Source: Carcharhinus amblyrhynchos (lineage: Eukaryota). Taken from it: 64,000 nt of DNA. Positions 10,452 to 57,490 of the stretch are shown here, piece by piece. The position numbers were made by a program, and so were the translations under genes. Every line of letters starts with the position of its first letter. The first letter of the stretch is position 1. The DNA is taken from NCBI GenBank assembly GCA_965287045.1, contig OZ336890.1:39556001-39620000 (forward strand). Reading direction: 5' to 3'. The notes below the pieces were generated by a model. The model saw only the letters and a program-made list of their open reading frames with translations. It did not search any database and had not been told where the DNA came from.

Positions 10452-10550
10452 TAAGAACATAAGAACATAAGAAATAGGAGCAGGAGTAGGCCATCTGGCC
10501 CTTCGAGCCTGCCCCGCCATTCAATAAGATCATGGCTGATCTGTCGTGGC

Positions 10551-13391
10551 TCAGTTCCACTTTCCCGCCCTCTCCCCATAACCCTTAATCCCCTCTCTTA
10601 TCAAAAACCCATCAACCCGCTTCTTAAAAATATTTAGCGAGGCAGCCTCCACCACTTCAACGGGCAGAGAATTCCAGAGATTCACCACCCTTTGAGTGAA
10701 GAAGTTCCTCCTCAACTCCGTTCTGAACCGCCCCCCCTTTATCTTGAGGCTGTGCCCCCTAGTCCTACTGTCTTTTTTGAGCAGGAAGAGTCTTTCCACC
10801 TCTATCCTATCCATCCCATTCATCATCTTATACGTCTCAATGAGATCTCCCCTCATTCTTCTAAACTCTAACGAGTACAAGCCTAGTTTATTCAGCCTCT
10901 CCTCATAGCTCAACCCCCTCAACTCCGGTATCAGCCTAGTAAACCTCCTCTGCACTCCCTCCAGGGCCAAAATATCCTTGCGCAGGTGCGGCGCCCAAAA
11001 CTGCACACAGTACTCCAGCTGCGGCCTCACCAATGCCCTATACAGCTGCAGCAAGACCTCCCTACTTTTATATTCAATCCCCCTCGCTATGAAGGCCAGC
11101 ATCCCATTCGCCTTCCTGACCACCTGCTGCACTTGCAGGCTGGGTTTTTGCGACTCATGCACAAGGACCCCGAGGTCCCTCTGCACCGTCGCCTGCTGCA
11201 GTTTTTCGCCACGTAAGTAATAGTCCTTCCTACCATTCTTCCTACCAAAGTGGACCACCTCACACTTGCCAACATTAAATTCCATTTGCCATTTCCTGGC
11301 CCATTCGCCCAGCCTATCTAGATCCTTCTGCAGACTCTCCACACCCTCCGCACAATTTGCCTTTCCCCCAATCTTGGTGTCATCAGCAAATTTCAACACC
11401 CTACACTCGGTTCCCTCCTCCAGATCATCTATATAAATGGTAAATAGCTGAGGCCCCAGCACCGACCCCTGGGGCACCCCACTAGTCACCAACCGCCAAT
11501 CCGAATAGCACCCATTGACCCCCACTCTCTGCCTCCTATTTGACAACCAATCCTCTATCCACGCTAACACCCTACCCCCAACTCCATGTCCTCTGACCTT
11601 CTGCAGTAACCTCTTGTGAGGTACCTTATCAAACGCCTTCTGAAAATCCAGAAAGACCACATCCACCGGCTCTCCTCTATCCACCGCCCTAGACACATCC
11701 TCATAGAACTCCAGTAAATTTGCCAGACACGACTTCCCTTTAATGAAACCGTGTTGCGTCTGCCCTATCAAGCAATTCCCTTCAAGATGCCTCGCAATTT
11801 CCTCCTTAATGACGGATTCTAACATTTTACCTACCACAGACGTTAAACTAACCGGCCTGTAATTCCCCGCCTTTTGCCTGGCACCCTTCTTAAACAACGG
11901 CGTAACATTAGCCGTTTTCCAATCCTCCGGCACTTCCCCGGAATCCAGCGACGTCTGGAAAATAACCACCAAGGCATCCACTATCACCTCCGCCATTTCT
12001 TTCAGAACCCTCGGATGCATTCCATCCGGTCCTGGGGACTTGTCCACAATCAGCCCCTCCAGTCTGTCGCGCACCACCTCTCTAGTAACAGTAATGTCAT
12101 TAAGACCCTCCAGTCCTACCACCTTTCCATCGCTAACACCCGGCAAATTATTCACGTCCTCCTCCGTGAAGACAGAAACAAAAAAGTTATTCAAGACCTT
12201 AGCCATATCCCCATCCCCTACCACTAGGTCCCCTTTCTCATCCGCTAAGGGACCAACGTTCACCCTAGCCAGCCTCTTCCTTTTTATATATTTATAAAAA
12301 CTCTTGCTATCCTTTTTTATATTAAGCGCTAGCCCAGCTTCATAGCTTCTTCTACCCTCCTTTATCAACTTTTTTGTCAATCTTTGTTGACATTTAAACC
12401 TTTCCCAATCCTCTTCTCGCCCACTGCTCTTAGTTACTCTAAATTCCTCCGCTTTTAATTTAACACTTTCCTTCACCTCCTTCGTTATCCACGGCTTATT
12501 ACCTCTCTTCCTACTGTCCTTTTTAACCATCGGAATAAATTTCTGCTGAGCACCAAGAAAGATCTCCTTAAAGATCCTCCACTGCTCCTCAGCAGACCTA
12601 CCTTCCAACGCGCTCCCCCAGTCCACATTCGCCAATTCTTCTCTCATCCTACCGTACTCCCCTCTATTCAAACAAAGGACACGTGTCCGGGAACCCACTT
12701 TCTCCTCCTCCATCTGCAACAGAAACTCCACCATACAATGATCACTCTCTCCAAGAGGATCCTTCACCTCAAGGTCCCTAATTCTACCCGCCTCATTACA
12801 TAGCACCAGATCCAAGACAGCTCGCTCCCTCGTCGGCTCCAACACACACTGTTCCAGGAAACTATCCCGGCAGCATTCCAAGAACTCCTCCTCGAGCCCA
12901 CCTCGTCCAACATGGGTCGACCAATCAATATGCAGATTGAAATCCCCCATAACTACTGCCGTCCCATTCCTGCACGCCGCACTTATTTGCGCGTTAACAG
13001 CCCGCCCCACCTCCAGATCATTATTCGGGGGCCTATAGACGACACCCACCAGCGTCTTCCTCCCTTTGCTGTTCCTAACCTCCACCCACAACGATTCCAC
13101 TTTCTGCTCTTTGGCTCCGATATCATCCCTTGCTACCACCTTGATGCTGTCCTTAATCAGCAGAGCTACGCCACCCCCTCTTTCCTCCTGCCTATCCTTC
13201 CTAAACACTTGATAGCCCTGTACATTCATCTCCCAGTCCCTGTCACCTTGCAGCCACGTCTCTGTAATGGCCACCAGATCGTATCCATTTGTGTCGATCT
13301 GCGCCACCAGCTCATCCACTTTATTCCGAATGCTTCGTGCATTCAGATAAAGCGCTTTCATCACAGCCTTCTTCTGGACCCTATTTGCCAT
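10551..13391 (-). CDS. CR1 ORF2p: APE endonuclease + reverse transcriptase. 946 aa from the first ATG; the frame stays open upstream through the ORF1 stop.
   Basis: APE motifs YLNARS, AITETW, GDFN, LDLV, SDH. RT motifs KSPGPDG, NYRPVSLTS, DFQKAFDKVPH, GVPQGSVLGP, KFADDTK, RDLGV. No stops or frameshifts. Confidence 0.95.
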   Translation of the reverse strand: MANRVQKKAVMKALYLNARSIRNKVDELVAQIDTNGYDLVAITETWLQGDRDWEMNVQGYQVFRKDRQEERGGGVALLIKDSIKVVARDDIGAKEQKVESLWVEVRNSKGRKTLVGVVYRPPNNDLEVGRAVNAQISAACRNGTAVVMGDFNLHIDWSTHVGRGGLEEEFLECCRDSFLEQCVLEPTRERAVLDLVLCNEAGRIRDLEVKDPLGESDHCMVEFLLQMEEEKVGSRTRVLCLNRGEYGRMREELANVDWGSALEGRSAEEQWRIFKEIFLGAQQKFIPMVKKDSRKRGNKPWITKEVKESVKLKAEEFRVTKSSGREEDWERFKCQQRLTKKLIKEGRRSYEAGLALNIKKDSKSFYKYIKRKRLARVNVGPLADEKGDLVVGDGDMAKVLNNFFVSVFTEEDVNNLPGVSDGKVVGLEGLNDITVTREVVRDRLEGLIVDKSPGPDGMHPRVLKEMAEVIVDALVVIFQTSLDSGEVPEDWKTANVTPLFKKGARQKAGNYRPVSLTSVVGKMLESVIKEEIARHLEGNCLIGQTQHGFIKGKSCLANLLEFYEDVSRAVDRGEPVDVVFLDFQKAFDKVPHKRLLQKVRGHGVGGRVLAWIEDWLSNRRQRVGVNGCYSDWRLVTSGVPQGSVLGPQLFTIYIDDLEEGTECRVLKFADDTKIGGKANCAEGVESLQKDLDRLGEWARKWQMEFNVGKCEVVHFGRKNGRKDYYLRGEKLQQATVQRDLGVLVHESQKPSLQVQQVVRKANGMLAFIARGIEYKSREVLLQLYRALVRPQLEYCVQFWAPHLRKDILALEGVQRRFTRLIPELRGLSYEERLNKLGLYSLEFRRMRGDLIETYKMMNGMDRIEVERLFLLKKDSRTRGHSLKIKGGRFRTELRRNFFTQRVVNLWNSLPVEVVEAASLNIFKKRVDGFLIREGIKGYGERAGKWN

Positions 13392-13465
13392 AACGCCACC
13401 ACTTGGGACATCCTCAGCCTCTTCCCTTACCTGTACCCTATCCTTAACTGTAGACCTCCTAACAT

Positions 13466-13505
13466 CACCTACCCTCGCACCCTCCCCCCCCCTAATTAGT
13501 TTAAA
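13466..13505 (-). promoter_or_regulatory. Candidate -1 programmed ribosomal frameshift signal (U_UUA_AAC + 6-nt spacer + G-quadruplex-capable tract)
   Basis: Minus strand reads GC[T TTA AAC] TAA TTA GGGGGGGGG A GGG TGCGA GGG TA GG. The heptamer (13505-13499) is phased in ORF1 and ORF2 is in the -1 frame. Function is inferred. Confidence 0.6.
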
Positions 13506-14428
13506 GCCCTGTCTACAGTCCTCTTTACTCGATTCGCCAGCACTCTGGTCCCAGCACGATTCAGACCAACCCCATCCCGCCCGAACAAGTCCCACCTACC
13601 CCAATACTGGTGCCAATGCCCCATAAATTCGATCCCATTCCTCCCACACCAATCTCTGAGCCACCCATTCACTTCCTTTATCCTGTCAACCCTACGCCCG
13701 TCTGCACTCGGTTCAGGCAGTAGCCCAGAGAAGACCACCTTGTCGGTTCTACTTTTTAATTCCATTCCCAGCTTCTCATACTCCCTCCCCAGATCCTCAG
13801 TCCGCACTTTGCCTACGTCGCTGGCACCCACATGTACCACCACAACTGGGTTCTCACCCTCCCACTCCAGATTCCTCTGCAGCCCAGCTGCGACATCCTG
13901 TACCCGAGCACCAGGCAGACAACACACCCTTCTGTGCACTTTGTCATTGTGACAAAGGACAGTGTCAATACCCTTCACCCCACTATCTCCAATCACTACT
14001 ACGTTCCTTTTCCCCTTCTCTTTGCCTATGTCCTGCTGCATCACTGTACCGTGTGCAGTTTGCTCACCAACCTCACCTGCCTCGTCCTCTTCCAGAGTGG
14101 AAGCAAGAACCTCAAACCTGTTATGCAGATTAAGAGGCTGAGGCCTCCGCTCCTCACCCCCCTTCCTCCTCCCAGCAGCCCCCTTTTGTTCCTGACCCTT
14201 AGATTTAGACAGTCTAGAGGGGGTGGATGTCACTTGCACCCCATTGACAATGGCACCCTCTCTCCCCCTGATGAGCCTCAGTGTCTGTAGCTCAGAGGCC
14301 AGCTCATCCACCTTGAGCTGGAGCTCCTCCAGCAACCTGCACTTACTGCAGACATGGTCACTGGGAAGGACCCTGGGGTCCACCAGTTCCCACATCATAC
14401 AGGAACCGCACATCACATGCCCCTCCAT
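13496..14428 (-). CDS. CR1 ORF1p: CxxC..CxxC zinc finger, leucine zipper and SGNH/GDSL esterase-fold domain (310 aa)
   Basis: CGSCMMW...CSKC, LEELQLKVDELASELQTL heptads, VVIGDS, CLPGARV, VVVHVGASD, FGRDGVGLN. Ends RALN-stop. Confidence 0.92.
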   Translation of the reverse strand: MEGHVMCGSCMMWELVDPRVLPSDHVCSKCRLLEELQLKVDELASELQTLRLIRGREGAIVNGVQVTSTPSRLSKSKGQEQKGAAGRRKGGEERRPQPLNLHNRFEVLASTLEEDEAGEVGEQTAHGTVMQQDIGKEKGKRNVVVIGDSGVKGIDTVLCHNDKVHRRVCCLPGARVQDVAAGLQRNLEWEGENPVVVVHVGASDVGKVRTEDLGREYEKLGMELKSRTDKVVFSGLLPEPSADGRRVDRIKEVNGWLRDWCGRNGIEFMGHWHQYWGRWDLFGRDGVGLNRAGTRVLANRVKRTVDRALN

Positions 14429-15259
14429 TATTCAATATAATTTGTTGTAGGAAAAAATTTTTTCCTTGTTTCTTGCTGTAGTAGTTTTGAAAAAAAATTT
14501 TTTTTTTTTCCTTGTTCTTTCCACCTGGCCTTTTTACCTTCCAGCCCTTTTTGATATTAAGCCCTAATAGCTCACTCTGCTTCCCTCTCACTCCGCTGCC
14601 CGCTCCGACGCTGCCCGCTATCTACACCAGGCCTCCTTTTAAACTTGGCGCTGATTTAAAGCTGATGGGCCACAACTGCCTGATAATCACTCCCTCACAA
14701 TTCTTAAAGCAGTAAATACAATAAGTAAATGCTTTAAACAGTTCTACAAAGAACAAAGTGCTTTAAACTTATTTTAAACAGGTTTTTAACAGGTAAAGTC
14801 TTAGCTTTCTCTCTGATGCTCCTTCCTCGTCTGCTCCAGCAAACAATGTAAGGCCTTTATATTCCTCAATGATCTTCCAGTTCCTCTGATGGCTGCAACA
14901 GTTGTTTGACTCCCCCATTACTAGTATTGTGTAGCAATGAGTTTAATCTGTAATTTTTCATTTTGGGTGCCTATAAAGGCCTTTTGACTTTCCTTTCCTC
15001 AGATGCCTCAAATACTGTTTGTCTACCTCGTTGCCAGTTTTTATCTGGTGGTTTTAAAAGGACGCCTGAGGCCTACTCAGAGGTGCAAACAAAAAGCTTT
15101 ACTTAGAAGATGTTAACACAACAGACTGCAATATTACACTGCCCATAAGCCCACACAAATGGCCAATGATGTCAAATGATCAGCCTCTAGCAGGCTTGCC
15201 ATGGAACAGAGGGGCACTTTAAGTGAGGAAACAATACCATCGAACCTGCCAGTAGGGGC

Positions 15260-18090
15260 TTGGGAGAATGATTTTCCTTTCACAAAACCAGATGGACTCT
15301 GCCTGATTATCTTGGGTTTATTTAAGCATCCTGTTATAATATATTCAATAATAGCTTCTAGCATTTTCCCTCTGACAGATGTTAATCCAATCAGCCTATA
15401 GTTACCTGATTTTTCTCTTCTCCCATTTTTGAATAAAGGAATTACATTGCCTATTTTCCAATTATGTGGACCATTCCCAGAATCTAGTGAATTTTGGAAA
15501 ATTAAAACCAACGCAGCAACCAGCTCAACACAAAAAACAGAAAATGCTGGAAAATCTCAACAATCGCAAAAACCCAGCTTGCAGGTGCAGCAGGTGGTCA
15601 GGAAGGCGAATGGGATGCTGGCCTTCATAGCGAGGGGGATTGAATATAAAAGTAGGGAGGTCTTGCTGCAGCTGTATAGGGCATTGGTGAGGCCGCAGCT
15701 GGAGTACTGTGTGCAGTTTTGGGCGCCGCACCTGCGCAAGGATATTTTGGCCCTGGAGGGAGTGCAGAGGAGGTTTACTAGGCTGATACCGGAGTTGAGG
15801 GGATTGAGCTATGAGGAGAGGCTGAATAAACTAGGCTTGTACTCGTTAGAGTTTAGAAGAATGAGGGGAGATCTCATTGAGACGTATAAGATGATGAATG
15901 GGATGGATAGGATAGAGGTGGAGAGACTCTTCCCGCTCAAAAAAGACAGTAGGACTAGGGGGCACAGCCTCAAGATAAAGGGGAGGCGGTTTAGAACGGA
16001 GTTGAGGAGGAACTTCTTCACTCAAAGGGTGGTGAATCTCTGGAATTCTCTGCCCGTTGAAGTGGTGGAGGCTGCCTCGCTAAATATTTTTAAGAAGCGG
16101 GTTGATGGGTTCTTGATAAGAGAGGGGATTAAGGGTTATGGGGAGAGGGCGGGAAAGTGGAACTGAGCCACAACAGATCAGCCATGATCTTATTGAATGG
16201 CGGGGCAGGTTCGAAGGGCTAGATGGCCTACTCCTGCTCCTATTTCTTATGTTCTTATTTCTTATGTTCTAACAGATCTGACAACATCTGTGTAGGGAGA
16301 ATAGAGCTAATATTTTGAGTCTGGATGACCCTTTGTCACAGTTTCACAACCTCAACGAGCTCATTAGTCACTTCTTTTAAGACCCAAGAATGAAATCCAC
16401 CAGGACTCGGGGACCTGTCAATTCACAGATCCAACACTTCCTCGCTGATTGGAATTTTCTCGAGTTCCTCTCTTCCTTCCAATTTCTGATTTACAGCTAT
16501 TTCTGGGATGTTACTTGTTTCCTACATGGTGAAGATGATGCAAAATGTCTTACCAATTCATCCACCATCTGCTATTTTCCATTATTAATTCCCCAGACTC
16601 AGTTTCCATCGGACCAATGTTCACTTTATCAACTCTTTTTTATCAAATTGCGATGGAAACTCTTACCATCTGTCTTTATAGAAACACAGAAGATAAGAAC
16701 AGGAGAAGCCATTTGGCCCTTCGAGTCTGTTCCGTCATTAATCAAGATCATGGCTGATCATCCAACTCAATAGCCTAATTTTGTTTTCTTCCCATTATCT
16801 TTGATCCCATTCACCCCACGTGCTACATTTAGCCGCCTCTTAAATACATTCAATGTTTTGGCATTAACTACTTCCTGTGGTAATGAATTCCACAGGCTCA
16901 CCACTCTTTGGGTGAAGAAATTTCTACTCACCTCCATCCTAAATGGTCTACTCTGAATCCTCAGACTGTGACCCCTAGTTCTGGCCAACACCCACCATCG
17001 GGAACATTCTCCCTGCATCCACTCTGTCTGGTCCTGTCAATATTTTAAAAGTCTCTACAAGACTCCCCCCTCATTCATCTGAATTCCAGCCAAAACAATC
17101 CTAATCTAGTCAATCTCTCCTCGTACATCAGTCCCGCCATCCCCCTTTCTAGCTAGTTTTCTCTAGTATTCTAATTTTTCTCTCCATATTAATCTTTCAG
17201 TCATTTTTTGCCGTTTTTGATATTCTGCCCAATTTTCTGACAGGCCACCTTTGCTGAATTATATGCTTTTTTTCTTTAGTTTTGATACGATCTTTAAGTT
17301 TTTAGTTCATCACAGATGGTGGGTCCTTCCATTGGAACTTTTCTTCCTTGTTGGAATGTGTATTCTGAAATATTCCCTTAAATGTCTGCAACTGCATCTC
17401 TAATGACCTTTCCTTAATCTAAATTGACAGTTCATTTTTGCTACATCTGCATTGATGCCTTCATAATTGCCCTTATTAAAGTTTAAAATACTAGTCCTAG
17501 ACCCGCTCTTCTCTCCCTCAAAATGACAATAAAATCAATCACATTGTGATCACTGCCACCTCAGAGCACCTGGGATTTTCACAGTAACTTCACTGCAGTG
17601 TTAATGTAAATCCACTCGTGACACTAATAAACAGTAAAACTTCATTGCAATGTCATTAATTAGCCCTATTGTATTGCACAACACGAGGTCTGGTATAGCT
17701 TGTTCCCTGATCGGCTCCATAACATGCTGATCCAAGAATTGTGCCAAAAAGATTCTATGAGTATATTGTCTATGCTACCTTTATCTGATTACTTATTGAT
17801 TAAGATCTGCCATGACTTCTCTGACAAGCTCCCACTTTTCTTCCTTGGATACTCCGTCCAGCAGTGTGATTACTATTAAGGAGCTAACCTATTCCTGCAA
17901 GTGACTATTCACCTTTTCATTCCTCATCTACCCAACTACTTCAATATCGAGTTTCTTGAATTTAGGTCATCTCTCTCTAATATGCGCGTCATCATTAATT
18001 AACAGAACATCCCCTCCATTTTATCCAAATTTCCTACCCTTCCTAAAAGGCAAGTTCACTTCAGTATTTCAGTCCCAGTCCACGCCATCC
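15260..18090 (-). mobile_element. Old degenerate CR1 ORF2 interrupted by a Penelope-like fragment, the young CR1 copy, another CR1 3' end (about 16680-17145) and a SINE tail (about 17570-17640)
   Basis: Decayed motifs VLIFQNSLDSG..WKIGNVIPLFK..GNYRLIGLTSV..GFVKGKS on the left of the inserts. The reading continues upstream on the right. Confidence 0.8.
15564..16270 (+). mobile_element. 5'-truncated young CR1 copy of the same family as the full-length element, in inverted orientation
   Basis: About 11 substitutions by eye versus the reverse complement of 10452-11153. Same tail. AACA duplication at 15559-15562 and 16271-16274. Confidence 0.95.
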
Positions 18091-56719: not shown

Positions 56720-57490
56720 GTGAAATCGGAGAATACAGGAGATAAATGCATGACTCAAGAGTTGGTGCAGGAGGGAAGGTTTTAGATTCTTGGATTACTG
56801 GGGCCATTTATGGGGAAGGTGGGAGAGGTACAACTGGGACGGTCTAGATCTAGACCAGAACGGGACCAACGTCCCTGCAGGTGAGCTTGCTAGTGCTCTT
56901 GGGGGGAGTTCAAAGTAATTCAGTAGTGGTGCGAACTAGAGCATTAGTACAATAGAGGTGCAGTATACTTGAATTTCAAGGGAGTAAGCATGGCTGGATA
57001 GCCTCTAATGCTAGGAGTGTTATAGGTAAAATTGATAAGTTGAGGATGTTGATTGACACATGGATTGTGATATTGTTGCCATCACAGAAATGTGAGTGAG
57101 TGGCTGGATTGGCACCTCAGCATTTCAGTGTAGAGGATCATTGGGCAAGCATAGAGGAGGGTGTAAGGAAGAGGTGATACTGCATTATTAATTAAGGAGT
57201 CAGTTACTGCAGCGAGGAGGGATGATATCTTGGAACGGTCTTCAAAAGAGGTTTGTGGATAGAGCTTAGGAATAAAAAGAGGGTGACAGGCGGTCTAATG
57301 TACTGCCTGGGAGGACAGTAGAGGCAGGAAACTTCATAACTTTTAAAAAGTATATGGATGAGCACGTAAAGTGTTGTAACATTCAATGTTATGGGTCAAA
57401 TGTTGAAAAGTGGGATTAGTGTACATTCAGTGCGGTTTTGTTGATGCAGACTCGATGGGCTGATGAGCCTCGTCTGCACTGTATAACTCT
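56720..57490 (+). mobile_element. Internally deleted old CR1 (ORF1 end, ORF2 start and 3' end)
   Basis: WCRREGFRFLDYWGHLWGRWERYNWDGL, then NARSVIGKIDKL..DIVAITE, then a jump near 57290 to the CR1 3' end. Confidence 0.8.

Follow-up and report, generated by a model that had tools for sequence, protein, structure and literature searches.

The window (the whole 64 000-nucleotide stretch of DNA analysed) contains a young full-length CR1-type LINE copy of about 4.4 kb on its minus strand (10453–14854), in which the frame encoding the endonuclease and reverse transcriptase lies at −1 relative to the frame that precedes it, and the question that this locus raises is how that second frame comes to be translated. 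Long matches to other copies number 36, with a median identity of 99.3%, and nine of them place the 5′ end at 14854. The 3′ end (about 10500–10453) comprises a hairpin plus TTCTTATG repeats. CR1-clade elements are defined at this end by a hairpin and a short octamer-type repeat with poly(A) absent, and this is the arrangement found here. ORF1 (13496–14428, minus strand) encodes 310 residues (14428–13499) followed by TAA, with Cys motifs in the N-terminal part, an SGNH esterase in the C-terminal part and Ala-Leu-Asn as its last residues; its match to the Pfam SGNH esterase family PF13472 (E = 5.8e-6) falls under the curated cut-off. An SGNH esterase is one of the CR1 ORF1 types described in part of PMC3905857. 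Homologues annotated as SGNH esterases occur in sharks, birds and turtles, and the closest named proteins come from sharks and rays. The ORF2 body (10551–13358, minus strand) contains an APE endonuclease and a reverse transcriptase (PF03372, PF14529 and PF00078). The ORF2 domains, the ORF1 esterase and the 3′ hairpin and repeats are the basis for assigning the element to the CR1 clade of non-LTR retrotransposons. All 150 scored matches to the C-terminal half of ORF1, from 34,347 genome candidates, are 99–100% identical and stop-free, which marks a very young, abundant family that should be well suited as starting material for a functional CR1 assay. Two further remnants lie on the plus strand of the window: a 5′-truncated copy of the same family (15558–16163; 98% to ORF2 residues 737–938), which sits within an older CR1 fragment (15269–15523), and a decayed ORF1 end (56730–56930) with its junction eroded to GAG TTC AAA GTA and an endonuclease remnant after it.

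On the minus strand ORF1 ends AGG GCT TTA AAC TAA. As an earlier note on this DNA had claimed, the slippery heptamer U_UUA_AAC (13505–13499) is in the X_XXY_YYZ phase with ORF1 and abuts the stop codon TAA (13498–13496), where the −1 frame reads Leu; the stop in other lineages is TAA, TAG or TGA. The −1 frame is free of stops from 13595 to the ORF2 stop at 10551, in agreement with the same note, and between the heptamer and the endonuclease it forms an open linker of 47 codons (13359–13499, minus strand). The predicted fusion length and junction are likewise reproduced, since 310 codons of ORF1 and 982 codons in the −1 frame after a slip amount to 1292 residues with the junction DRALN-LIRGGEGAR. 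A G-rich block, G9-A-GGG-TGCGA-GGG-TA-GG (13468–13492, minus strand), begins 6 nt past the heptamer and is a candidate stimulator; the G9 run starts at 13492, and G9-A-GGG-TGCGA-GGG has room for the four G3 tracts that had been pointed out. Three features expected of a canonical −1 signal are found together, namely an in-phase X_XXY_YYZ heptamer, an open −1 reading frame and a heptamer that is conserved beyond the needs of the protein. According to part of the review of Atkins et al. (2016; PMC5009743), U_UUA_AAC is among the most shifty heptamers listed.

We propose, with a probability of about 0.85 as judged from sequence comparison, that ORF2 is made by programmed −1 frameshifting as an ORF1–ORF2 fusion; the fixed heptamer, the −1 phase, the open linker and the exchange of one heptamer for another make this the likely route. 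At the TAA adjoining the heptamer, translation would end for most ribosomes, with release of the 310-residue esterase protein. A minority would slip by −1, with tRNA-Leu moving from UUA to UUU and tRNA-Asn from AAC to AAA, and would read on across the junction to give an esterase–linker–endonuclease–reverse transcriptase fusion, so that the frequency of slipping would set a gag-pol-like ratio of ORF1p to fusion. The G-rich block at 7–21 nt downstream would be the likely stimulator, and the adjacent stop codon may add a pause.

Copies of the junction were collected from the host genome using protein queries (the window ORF1 half, P0002, P0011, P0012, P0013, P0054 and P0057). These searches and 60 fetched stretches, mostly picked among stop-free matches, gave 200 loci, which were reduced to 191 by dropping nine same-place duplicates; the sample is small and search-ranked, comes from tens of thousands of candidates and was selected by ORF1 protein similarity. 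Clustering at 90% on the ORF1 end minus its last 12 nt produced 30 lineages (86, 30, 24, 22 and 4 copies and 25 singletons), which share ancestry and of which 25 are single old copies. TTTAAAC is present in register in 165 of the 191 copies and within 3 nt in six more; the other 20 differ, mostly by one base, and five of these share a single change and are all located on contig C41. Contigs C41, C46 and C52 hold clusters of near-identical broken CR1 copies, the five C41 copies having TTTAATC in common, and these clusters resemble tandem or segmental duplications more than insertions.

When the commonest letter is taken for each lineage, the seven positions read T in 29, T in 30, T in 29, A in 30, A in 30, A in 29 and C in 29 of the 30 lineages (eight copies had to be re-anchored to a heptamer close by; for two of these, which are single-copy lineages, the count is circular). 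The first T fills the third position of seven different codons (GGT in 14 lineages, GAT in four, GCT, ACT and AGT in three each, TGT and GTT in one each; one lineage has GAC), which encode Gly, Asp, Ala, Thr, Ser, Cys or Val and whose background use of T-ending codons is 20–52%. The Leu codon of the heptamer is TTA, which accounts for 14% of Leu codons in the background; AAC accounts for 43% of Asn codons. Synonymous sites were compared in 14 of the 30 lineages, those with stops or re-anchoring (16) being set aside. All four synonymous positions of the heptamer agree in 14 of 14 lineages, compared with 275 of 547 (50%) for neighbouring fourfold sites in the preceding 23 codons, which places the constraint on the nucleotides; ORF1 protein identity between these lineages is 39–79% (median 56%). 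The residues of the DGxHL block (D, G, L and T) are conserved in the same lineages, yet their codons vary. The check proposed in the earlier note, that the nucleotides TTTAAAC and not merely Leu-Asn should be invariant, therefore came out in its favour, and its statement that CR1 ORF1 proteins often end in Leu-Asn is borne out by 63 of 173 homologous proteins, among them named shark, ray, bird, snake, lizard and turtle proteins. Because the heptamer is conserved across lineages by these counts, the junction signal is not a chance occurrence.

The linker was analysed in 177 copies, after 14 without a mapped endonuclease start had been left out. Its length spans 108–351 nt, and the distance from heptamer to endonuclease is a multiple of three in 109 copies, compared with 32 and 36 in the other two phases. 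Among the nine clusters of at least three copies the modal distance is divisible by three in seven (108, 108, 123 and, four times, 141) and not in two (172 and 350); of the single copies, 20 of 35 are in the −1 phase. Stops at +6 to +50, counted in 44 copies, one per cluster, number four in the −1 frame versus 20 and 51 in the others. At the far end of the linker, next to the endonuclease, the same count gives 26 versus 65 and 105 and, for comparison, 5, 73 and 123 inside the endonuclease. All 30 young copies of the window family are in phase and open. Of the 20 older copies whose ORF2 is long and open, 14 have the −1 phase and 13 lack stops from the heptamer onwards; L123 has a complete 921-residue ORF2 with its linker off-phase. 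The expectation in the earlier note that ORF2 is always open and at −1 is thus upheld for the modal phase (seven of nine clusters) and for the depletion of −1 stops, but not for every copy, as 68 of the 177 are out of phase; by eye, G runs that changed in length after insertion seem to explain many of these. The G run after the heptamer reaches about 20 G, is a mutation hotspot and often dephases older copies (L088, L095, L096, L169, L203 and others). The run may be a point at which inactivation is built into the element.

More distant junctions were sought in one metagenome scan, which gave five loci, four of them reaching the junction (L084 ends before it; L083 and L085 end 29 and 11 nt past it). 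Three of the four (L082, L083 and L085) carry G_GGA_AAC, with TAG next in two, and the fourth (L086) has an imperfect site, G_AAU_UUU, followed by TAG. L082 and L086 both have ORF2 in the −1 frame, with 930+ and 1032 open codons, respectively, and these ORF2s are 42–43% alike to that of the window element. The supposition in the earlier note that the signal is conserved across the clade thus gains from relatives that have exchanged U_UUA_AAC for another canonical heptamer. At the protein level, a slippery-compatible dipeptide is found 22–29 residues past DGxH in 98 of 113 anchored homologues (control mean 18, maximum 31), and in 43 of the 58 that do not end in Leu-Asn (control 11.0, s.d. 2.9, maximum 22), with GN in ten, KN in nine and GF in five; this interval was chosen after inspection of the data, 56 proteins lacking the anchor motif and four that were too short were left out, and the evidence for KN, GF, birds and reptiles is at the protein level only. 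The GN, KN and GF endings appear to match other top mammalian slippery heptamers. The ORF1 proteins of one clade (P0114, P0119, P0128, P0139, P0150, P0157, P0159 and P0161) have K-N fixed 10–12 residues before the stop, a pattern that would be expected for an A_AAA_AAC site not adjoining the stop. A search for GN-type lineages in the host genome with a GN-type query returned 118 scored matches, all to known families, and among contigs searched for the junction DNA of distant relatives, viral contigs gave unrelated or weak matches only (L061 and L207) and genome contigs none. One ORF1 homologue (P0015; 35%) that ends in ILN is labelled as being from the flatworm Protopolystoma xenopodis.

Longer proteins were also searched for natural in-frame ORF1–ORF2 fusions; the search gave 11 bird gene models, which are not clean fusions. 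Five of these 11 (stork gene models) contain FKLD(L/S)KGEG about 95 residues before the endonuclease, which is the −1 reading of RALN-stop and implies TTTAAAC and the −1 phase if the stretches are contiguous DNA. Bird gene models such as P0211, P0213 and P0215–P0218 join CR1 ORF1 to ORF2, probably via invented introns at the frame change, and may in this way mask the frameshift signal in annotations.

The G-rich block varies in detail around a clade-wide core of G5–6, a gap of 1–3 nt and GGG at +11 to +21. Across the 30 lineages, G is kept at +7 and +8 in 24, at +11 to +15 in 25–27 and at +18 to +20 in 24–27, and A at +21 in 25. Within it, GGG makes up 23 of 25 and 20 of 24 Gly codons (43 of 49 together; background 33%), and G5-N(1–4)-GGG is present in 18 of 30 junctions compared with 1.7% of background windows. 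Of the G-rich element for which the earlier note proposed a check at 5–9 nt, a linear G5-N-GGG block at +11 to +21 is kept across the clade. A local stem-loop was considered as stimulator and rejected: the first 60 nt beyond the stop show no conserved one across 33 junctions (mean z +0.2, with no junction under −2), and several lineages have almost no C in this region, the G-rich block occupying the usual place of a stem-loop. Pairing of the block with the 3′ UTR or ORF1 was rejected as well; no conserved long-range partner was found in 17 elements, the best partners being scattered at unrelated places and often in flanking DNA.

The stimulator may instead be an RNA G-quadruplex, with three tiers in the window family and two (GG-NN-GG-G-GG-NN-GG) elsewhere. 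In the window this variant of the frameshift proposal is consistent with the four G3 tracts located exactly 6 nt past the heptamer and with the ViennaRNA energies (−21.2 kcal/mol with a quadruplex, −2.1 kcal/mol without), and the two-tier pattern is found in 16 of 33 junctions versus 11% of 1100 background windows. Against it, four G3 tracts are present in only two of the 33 junctions, and three multi-copy lineages (L152, L109 and L052, with 30, 24 and four copies) lack the two-tier pattern within 35 nt and nevertheless keep the heptamer and phase. These three lineages, which could not form a local quadruplex, favour a linear motif across the clade, recognized by a G-tract-binding protein, ORF1p or rRNA; we slightly favour this reading, tentatively, and regard the quadruplex as plausible in the window family, though somewhat doubtful as the general stimulator. 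Protein-stimulated frameshifting in arteriviruses and cardioviruses uses a short linear motif about 10 nt past the shift site and no stable structure. The CR1 junctions are similar in that a linear motif takes the place of a stable structure, the CR1 motif being G-rich. For quadruplexes, a portion of Yu et al. (2014; PMC3919603) reports stimulation of −1 shifts on UUUAAAC, up to 7%, with an optimum spacer of 6–8 nt, and the consulted part of PMC5009743 (2016) calls natural G-quadruplex stimulators not yet known but anticipated. Taken as a whole, the earlier note is supported by the comparative tests as regards a frameshift fusion with a conserved signal, and its three-tier quadruplex fits the window family only.

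Among other explanations for ORF2 expression, the one that survives best is termination followed by re-initiation as in L1 and SART1, in which ribosomes restart at an ORF2 AUG (13391 or 13361) or a near-cognate codon and produce a free ORF2p. This is the mechanism stated for studied LINEs in part of PMC2881922, and L1 initiation is described as AUG-independent in a section of PMC5009743. The first ORF2-frame ATG (13389–13391, minus strand) is not conserved, occurring in 13 of 83 copies of its lineage, and in contigs of three public runs, whose type is guessed and which have no bearing on expression level or frame, it reads ACG in most or all of the depth and in most matching contigs, with no difference listed within the heptamer. 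A second ATG (13359–13361, minus strand), which the earlier note did not list alongside 13391, precedes the first strand of the endonuclease by four codons and would be enough for a complete ORF2; it is present in 54 of 83 copies of the window lineage (ATA in 25), and with it re-initiation could operate beside frameshifting in the window family. At the equivalent of 13361, Met is found in just two of 22 lineages. No ATG precedes the first strand of the endonuclease in the L152 family (13 of 13 in-frame copies), in L072 (three of four) or in L040, L048, L058, L107 and L157, and the first Met of L086 is at codon 160, so that an AUG is dispensable in several lineages. The window junction reads TAATT and lacks the SART1-type UAAUG stop-start. 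Over the stop, ATG is found in three of 30 lineages and ATT or ATA in eight, which would suit re-initiation, as opposed to GTT, GAA or GAT in 15. The three with UAAUG (L051, L111 and L122) have the AUG in the ORF2 frame, the heptamer and a SART1-like stop-start thus coexisting. Re-initiation leaves unexplained the fixed synonymous bases of the heptamer, the open linkers that vary in length yet keep to the −1 phase and the exchange to G_GGA_AAC, and as a replacement for frameshifting we consider it improbable.

It is very unlikely that the ending is kept only as protein, with Leu-Asn packing on the esterase and codons retained by descent or codon bias. Leu-Asn does end the last helix in the 63 homologues counted above, and the lineages are related; however, the DGxHL codons vary in the same lineages, fourfold sites are half alike whereas heptamer sites are invariant, the third base of the preceding codon is fixed while its residue varies, and elsewhere the site is GN, KN or GF. 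Similarly remote is an element acting at the DNA level, such as a splice signal or an internal promoter, that would give a separate ORF2 message, for although TTTAAA is TATA-like and AACTAA resembles a branch point, there is no pyrimidine tract, AG is absent in the TAA and TGA lineages, contigs of four runs show no joints over 13250–13750 (a weak observation, from contigs only), the G_GGA_AAC relatives have neither feature and a phase relative to ORF1 codons would be needless.

A −1 frameshift at the CR1 junction would have several counterparts. The coronavirus ORF1a/1b site, as described for IBV in part of PMC5009743, has the same heptamer in the same phase, with a downstream element 6 nt later in both; the CR1 site differs in having no conserved stem-loop in 33 junctions and probably no pseudoknot, in the stop that abuts the heptamer and in belonging to a non-LTR retrotransposon and not a virus. 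Lacking a paired stimulator, the CR1 junction is not classed as a canonical pseudoknot signal. Retroviral and LTR gag-pol arrangements (RSV and PEG10, from the same portion of PMC5009743) also place a structural ORF before a polymerase ORF in the −1 frame and make the fusion as a minority product, and the esterase ORF1p has been proposed in a passage of PMC3905857 to be Gag-like in membrane binding. In contrast, CR1 is an APE-type LINE whose candidate stimulator is G-rich and not paired, and the element has no protease, so that a fusion would remain in one piece unless cleaved by the host. For TRE5-A and TRE3-A of Dictyostelium, the relevant statement of a review (PMC5911963) is that a −1 frameshift is required for ORF2; we liken them to the window CR1 on that statement, both being APE-RT LINEs that differ in clade and ORF1. 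L1 and SART1 are bicistronic LINEs with ORF2 dependent on ORF1 translation, as proposed for CR1, but according to parts of PMC2881922 and PMC5009743 they make a free ORF2p, with no fusion and no slippery heptamer, and for Paramecium elements a portion of PMC5405496 suggests +1 shifting or read-through.

A search of titles and abstracts, which took in neither subscription papers nor the notes in Repbase nor the first reports of CR1, found no description of CR1 frameshifting. The word ‘frameshift’ is absent from the esterase structure paper (PMC3905857), the main text of Galbraith et al. (2021; PMC8665684) mentions neither frameshift nor ORF1 nor ORF2, and matches in the searched part of the supplement of Suh et al. 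(2014; PMC4316615) lie in the ORF2 3′ end, with none at the junction. For −1 frameshifting in non-LTR LINEs, TRE5-A is a stated precedent (PMC5911963).

Explanations of how LINEs translate ORF2 come mainly from L1 and SART1, and invoke re-initiation. If CR1 does use a conserved −1 frameshift, this would be a second explanation, akin to that of retroviruses and applying to a large clade, as well as a new natural frameshift signal without a paired stimulator. At its broadest, a reading to which we give a little less than even odds, the proposal would extend to CR1 LINEs of the esterase type throughout the animals, among them the retrotransposons that dominate in sharks, reptiles and birds: their reverse transcriptase would be made as a Gag-Pol-like fusion, all four top eukaryotic heptamers would be interchangeable at the junction and the conserved G-rich stimulator would be the first natural frameshift signal of the G-quadruplex or G-tract-binding-protein kind. 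The frameshift would predict a reverse transcriptase tethered to an esterase, and the ORF2 protein would begin at the AUG of ORF1, which would bear on CR1 retrotransposition assays and on the annotation of ORF2.
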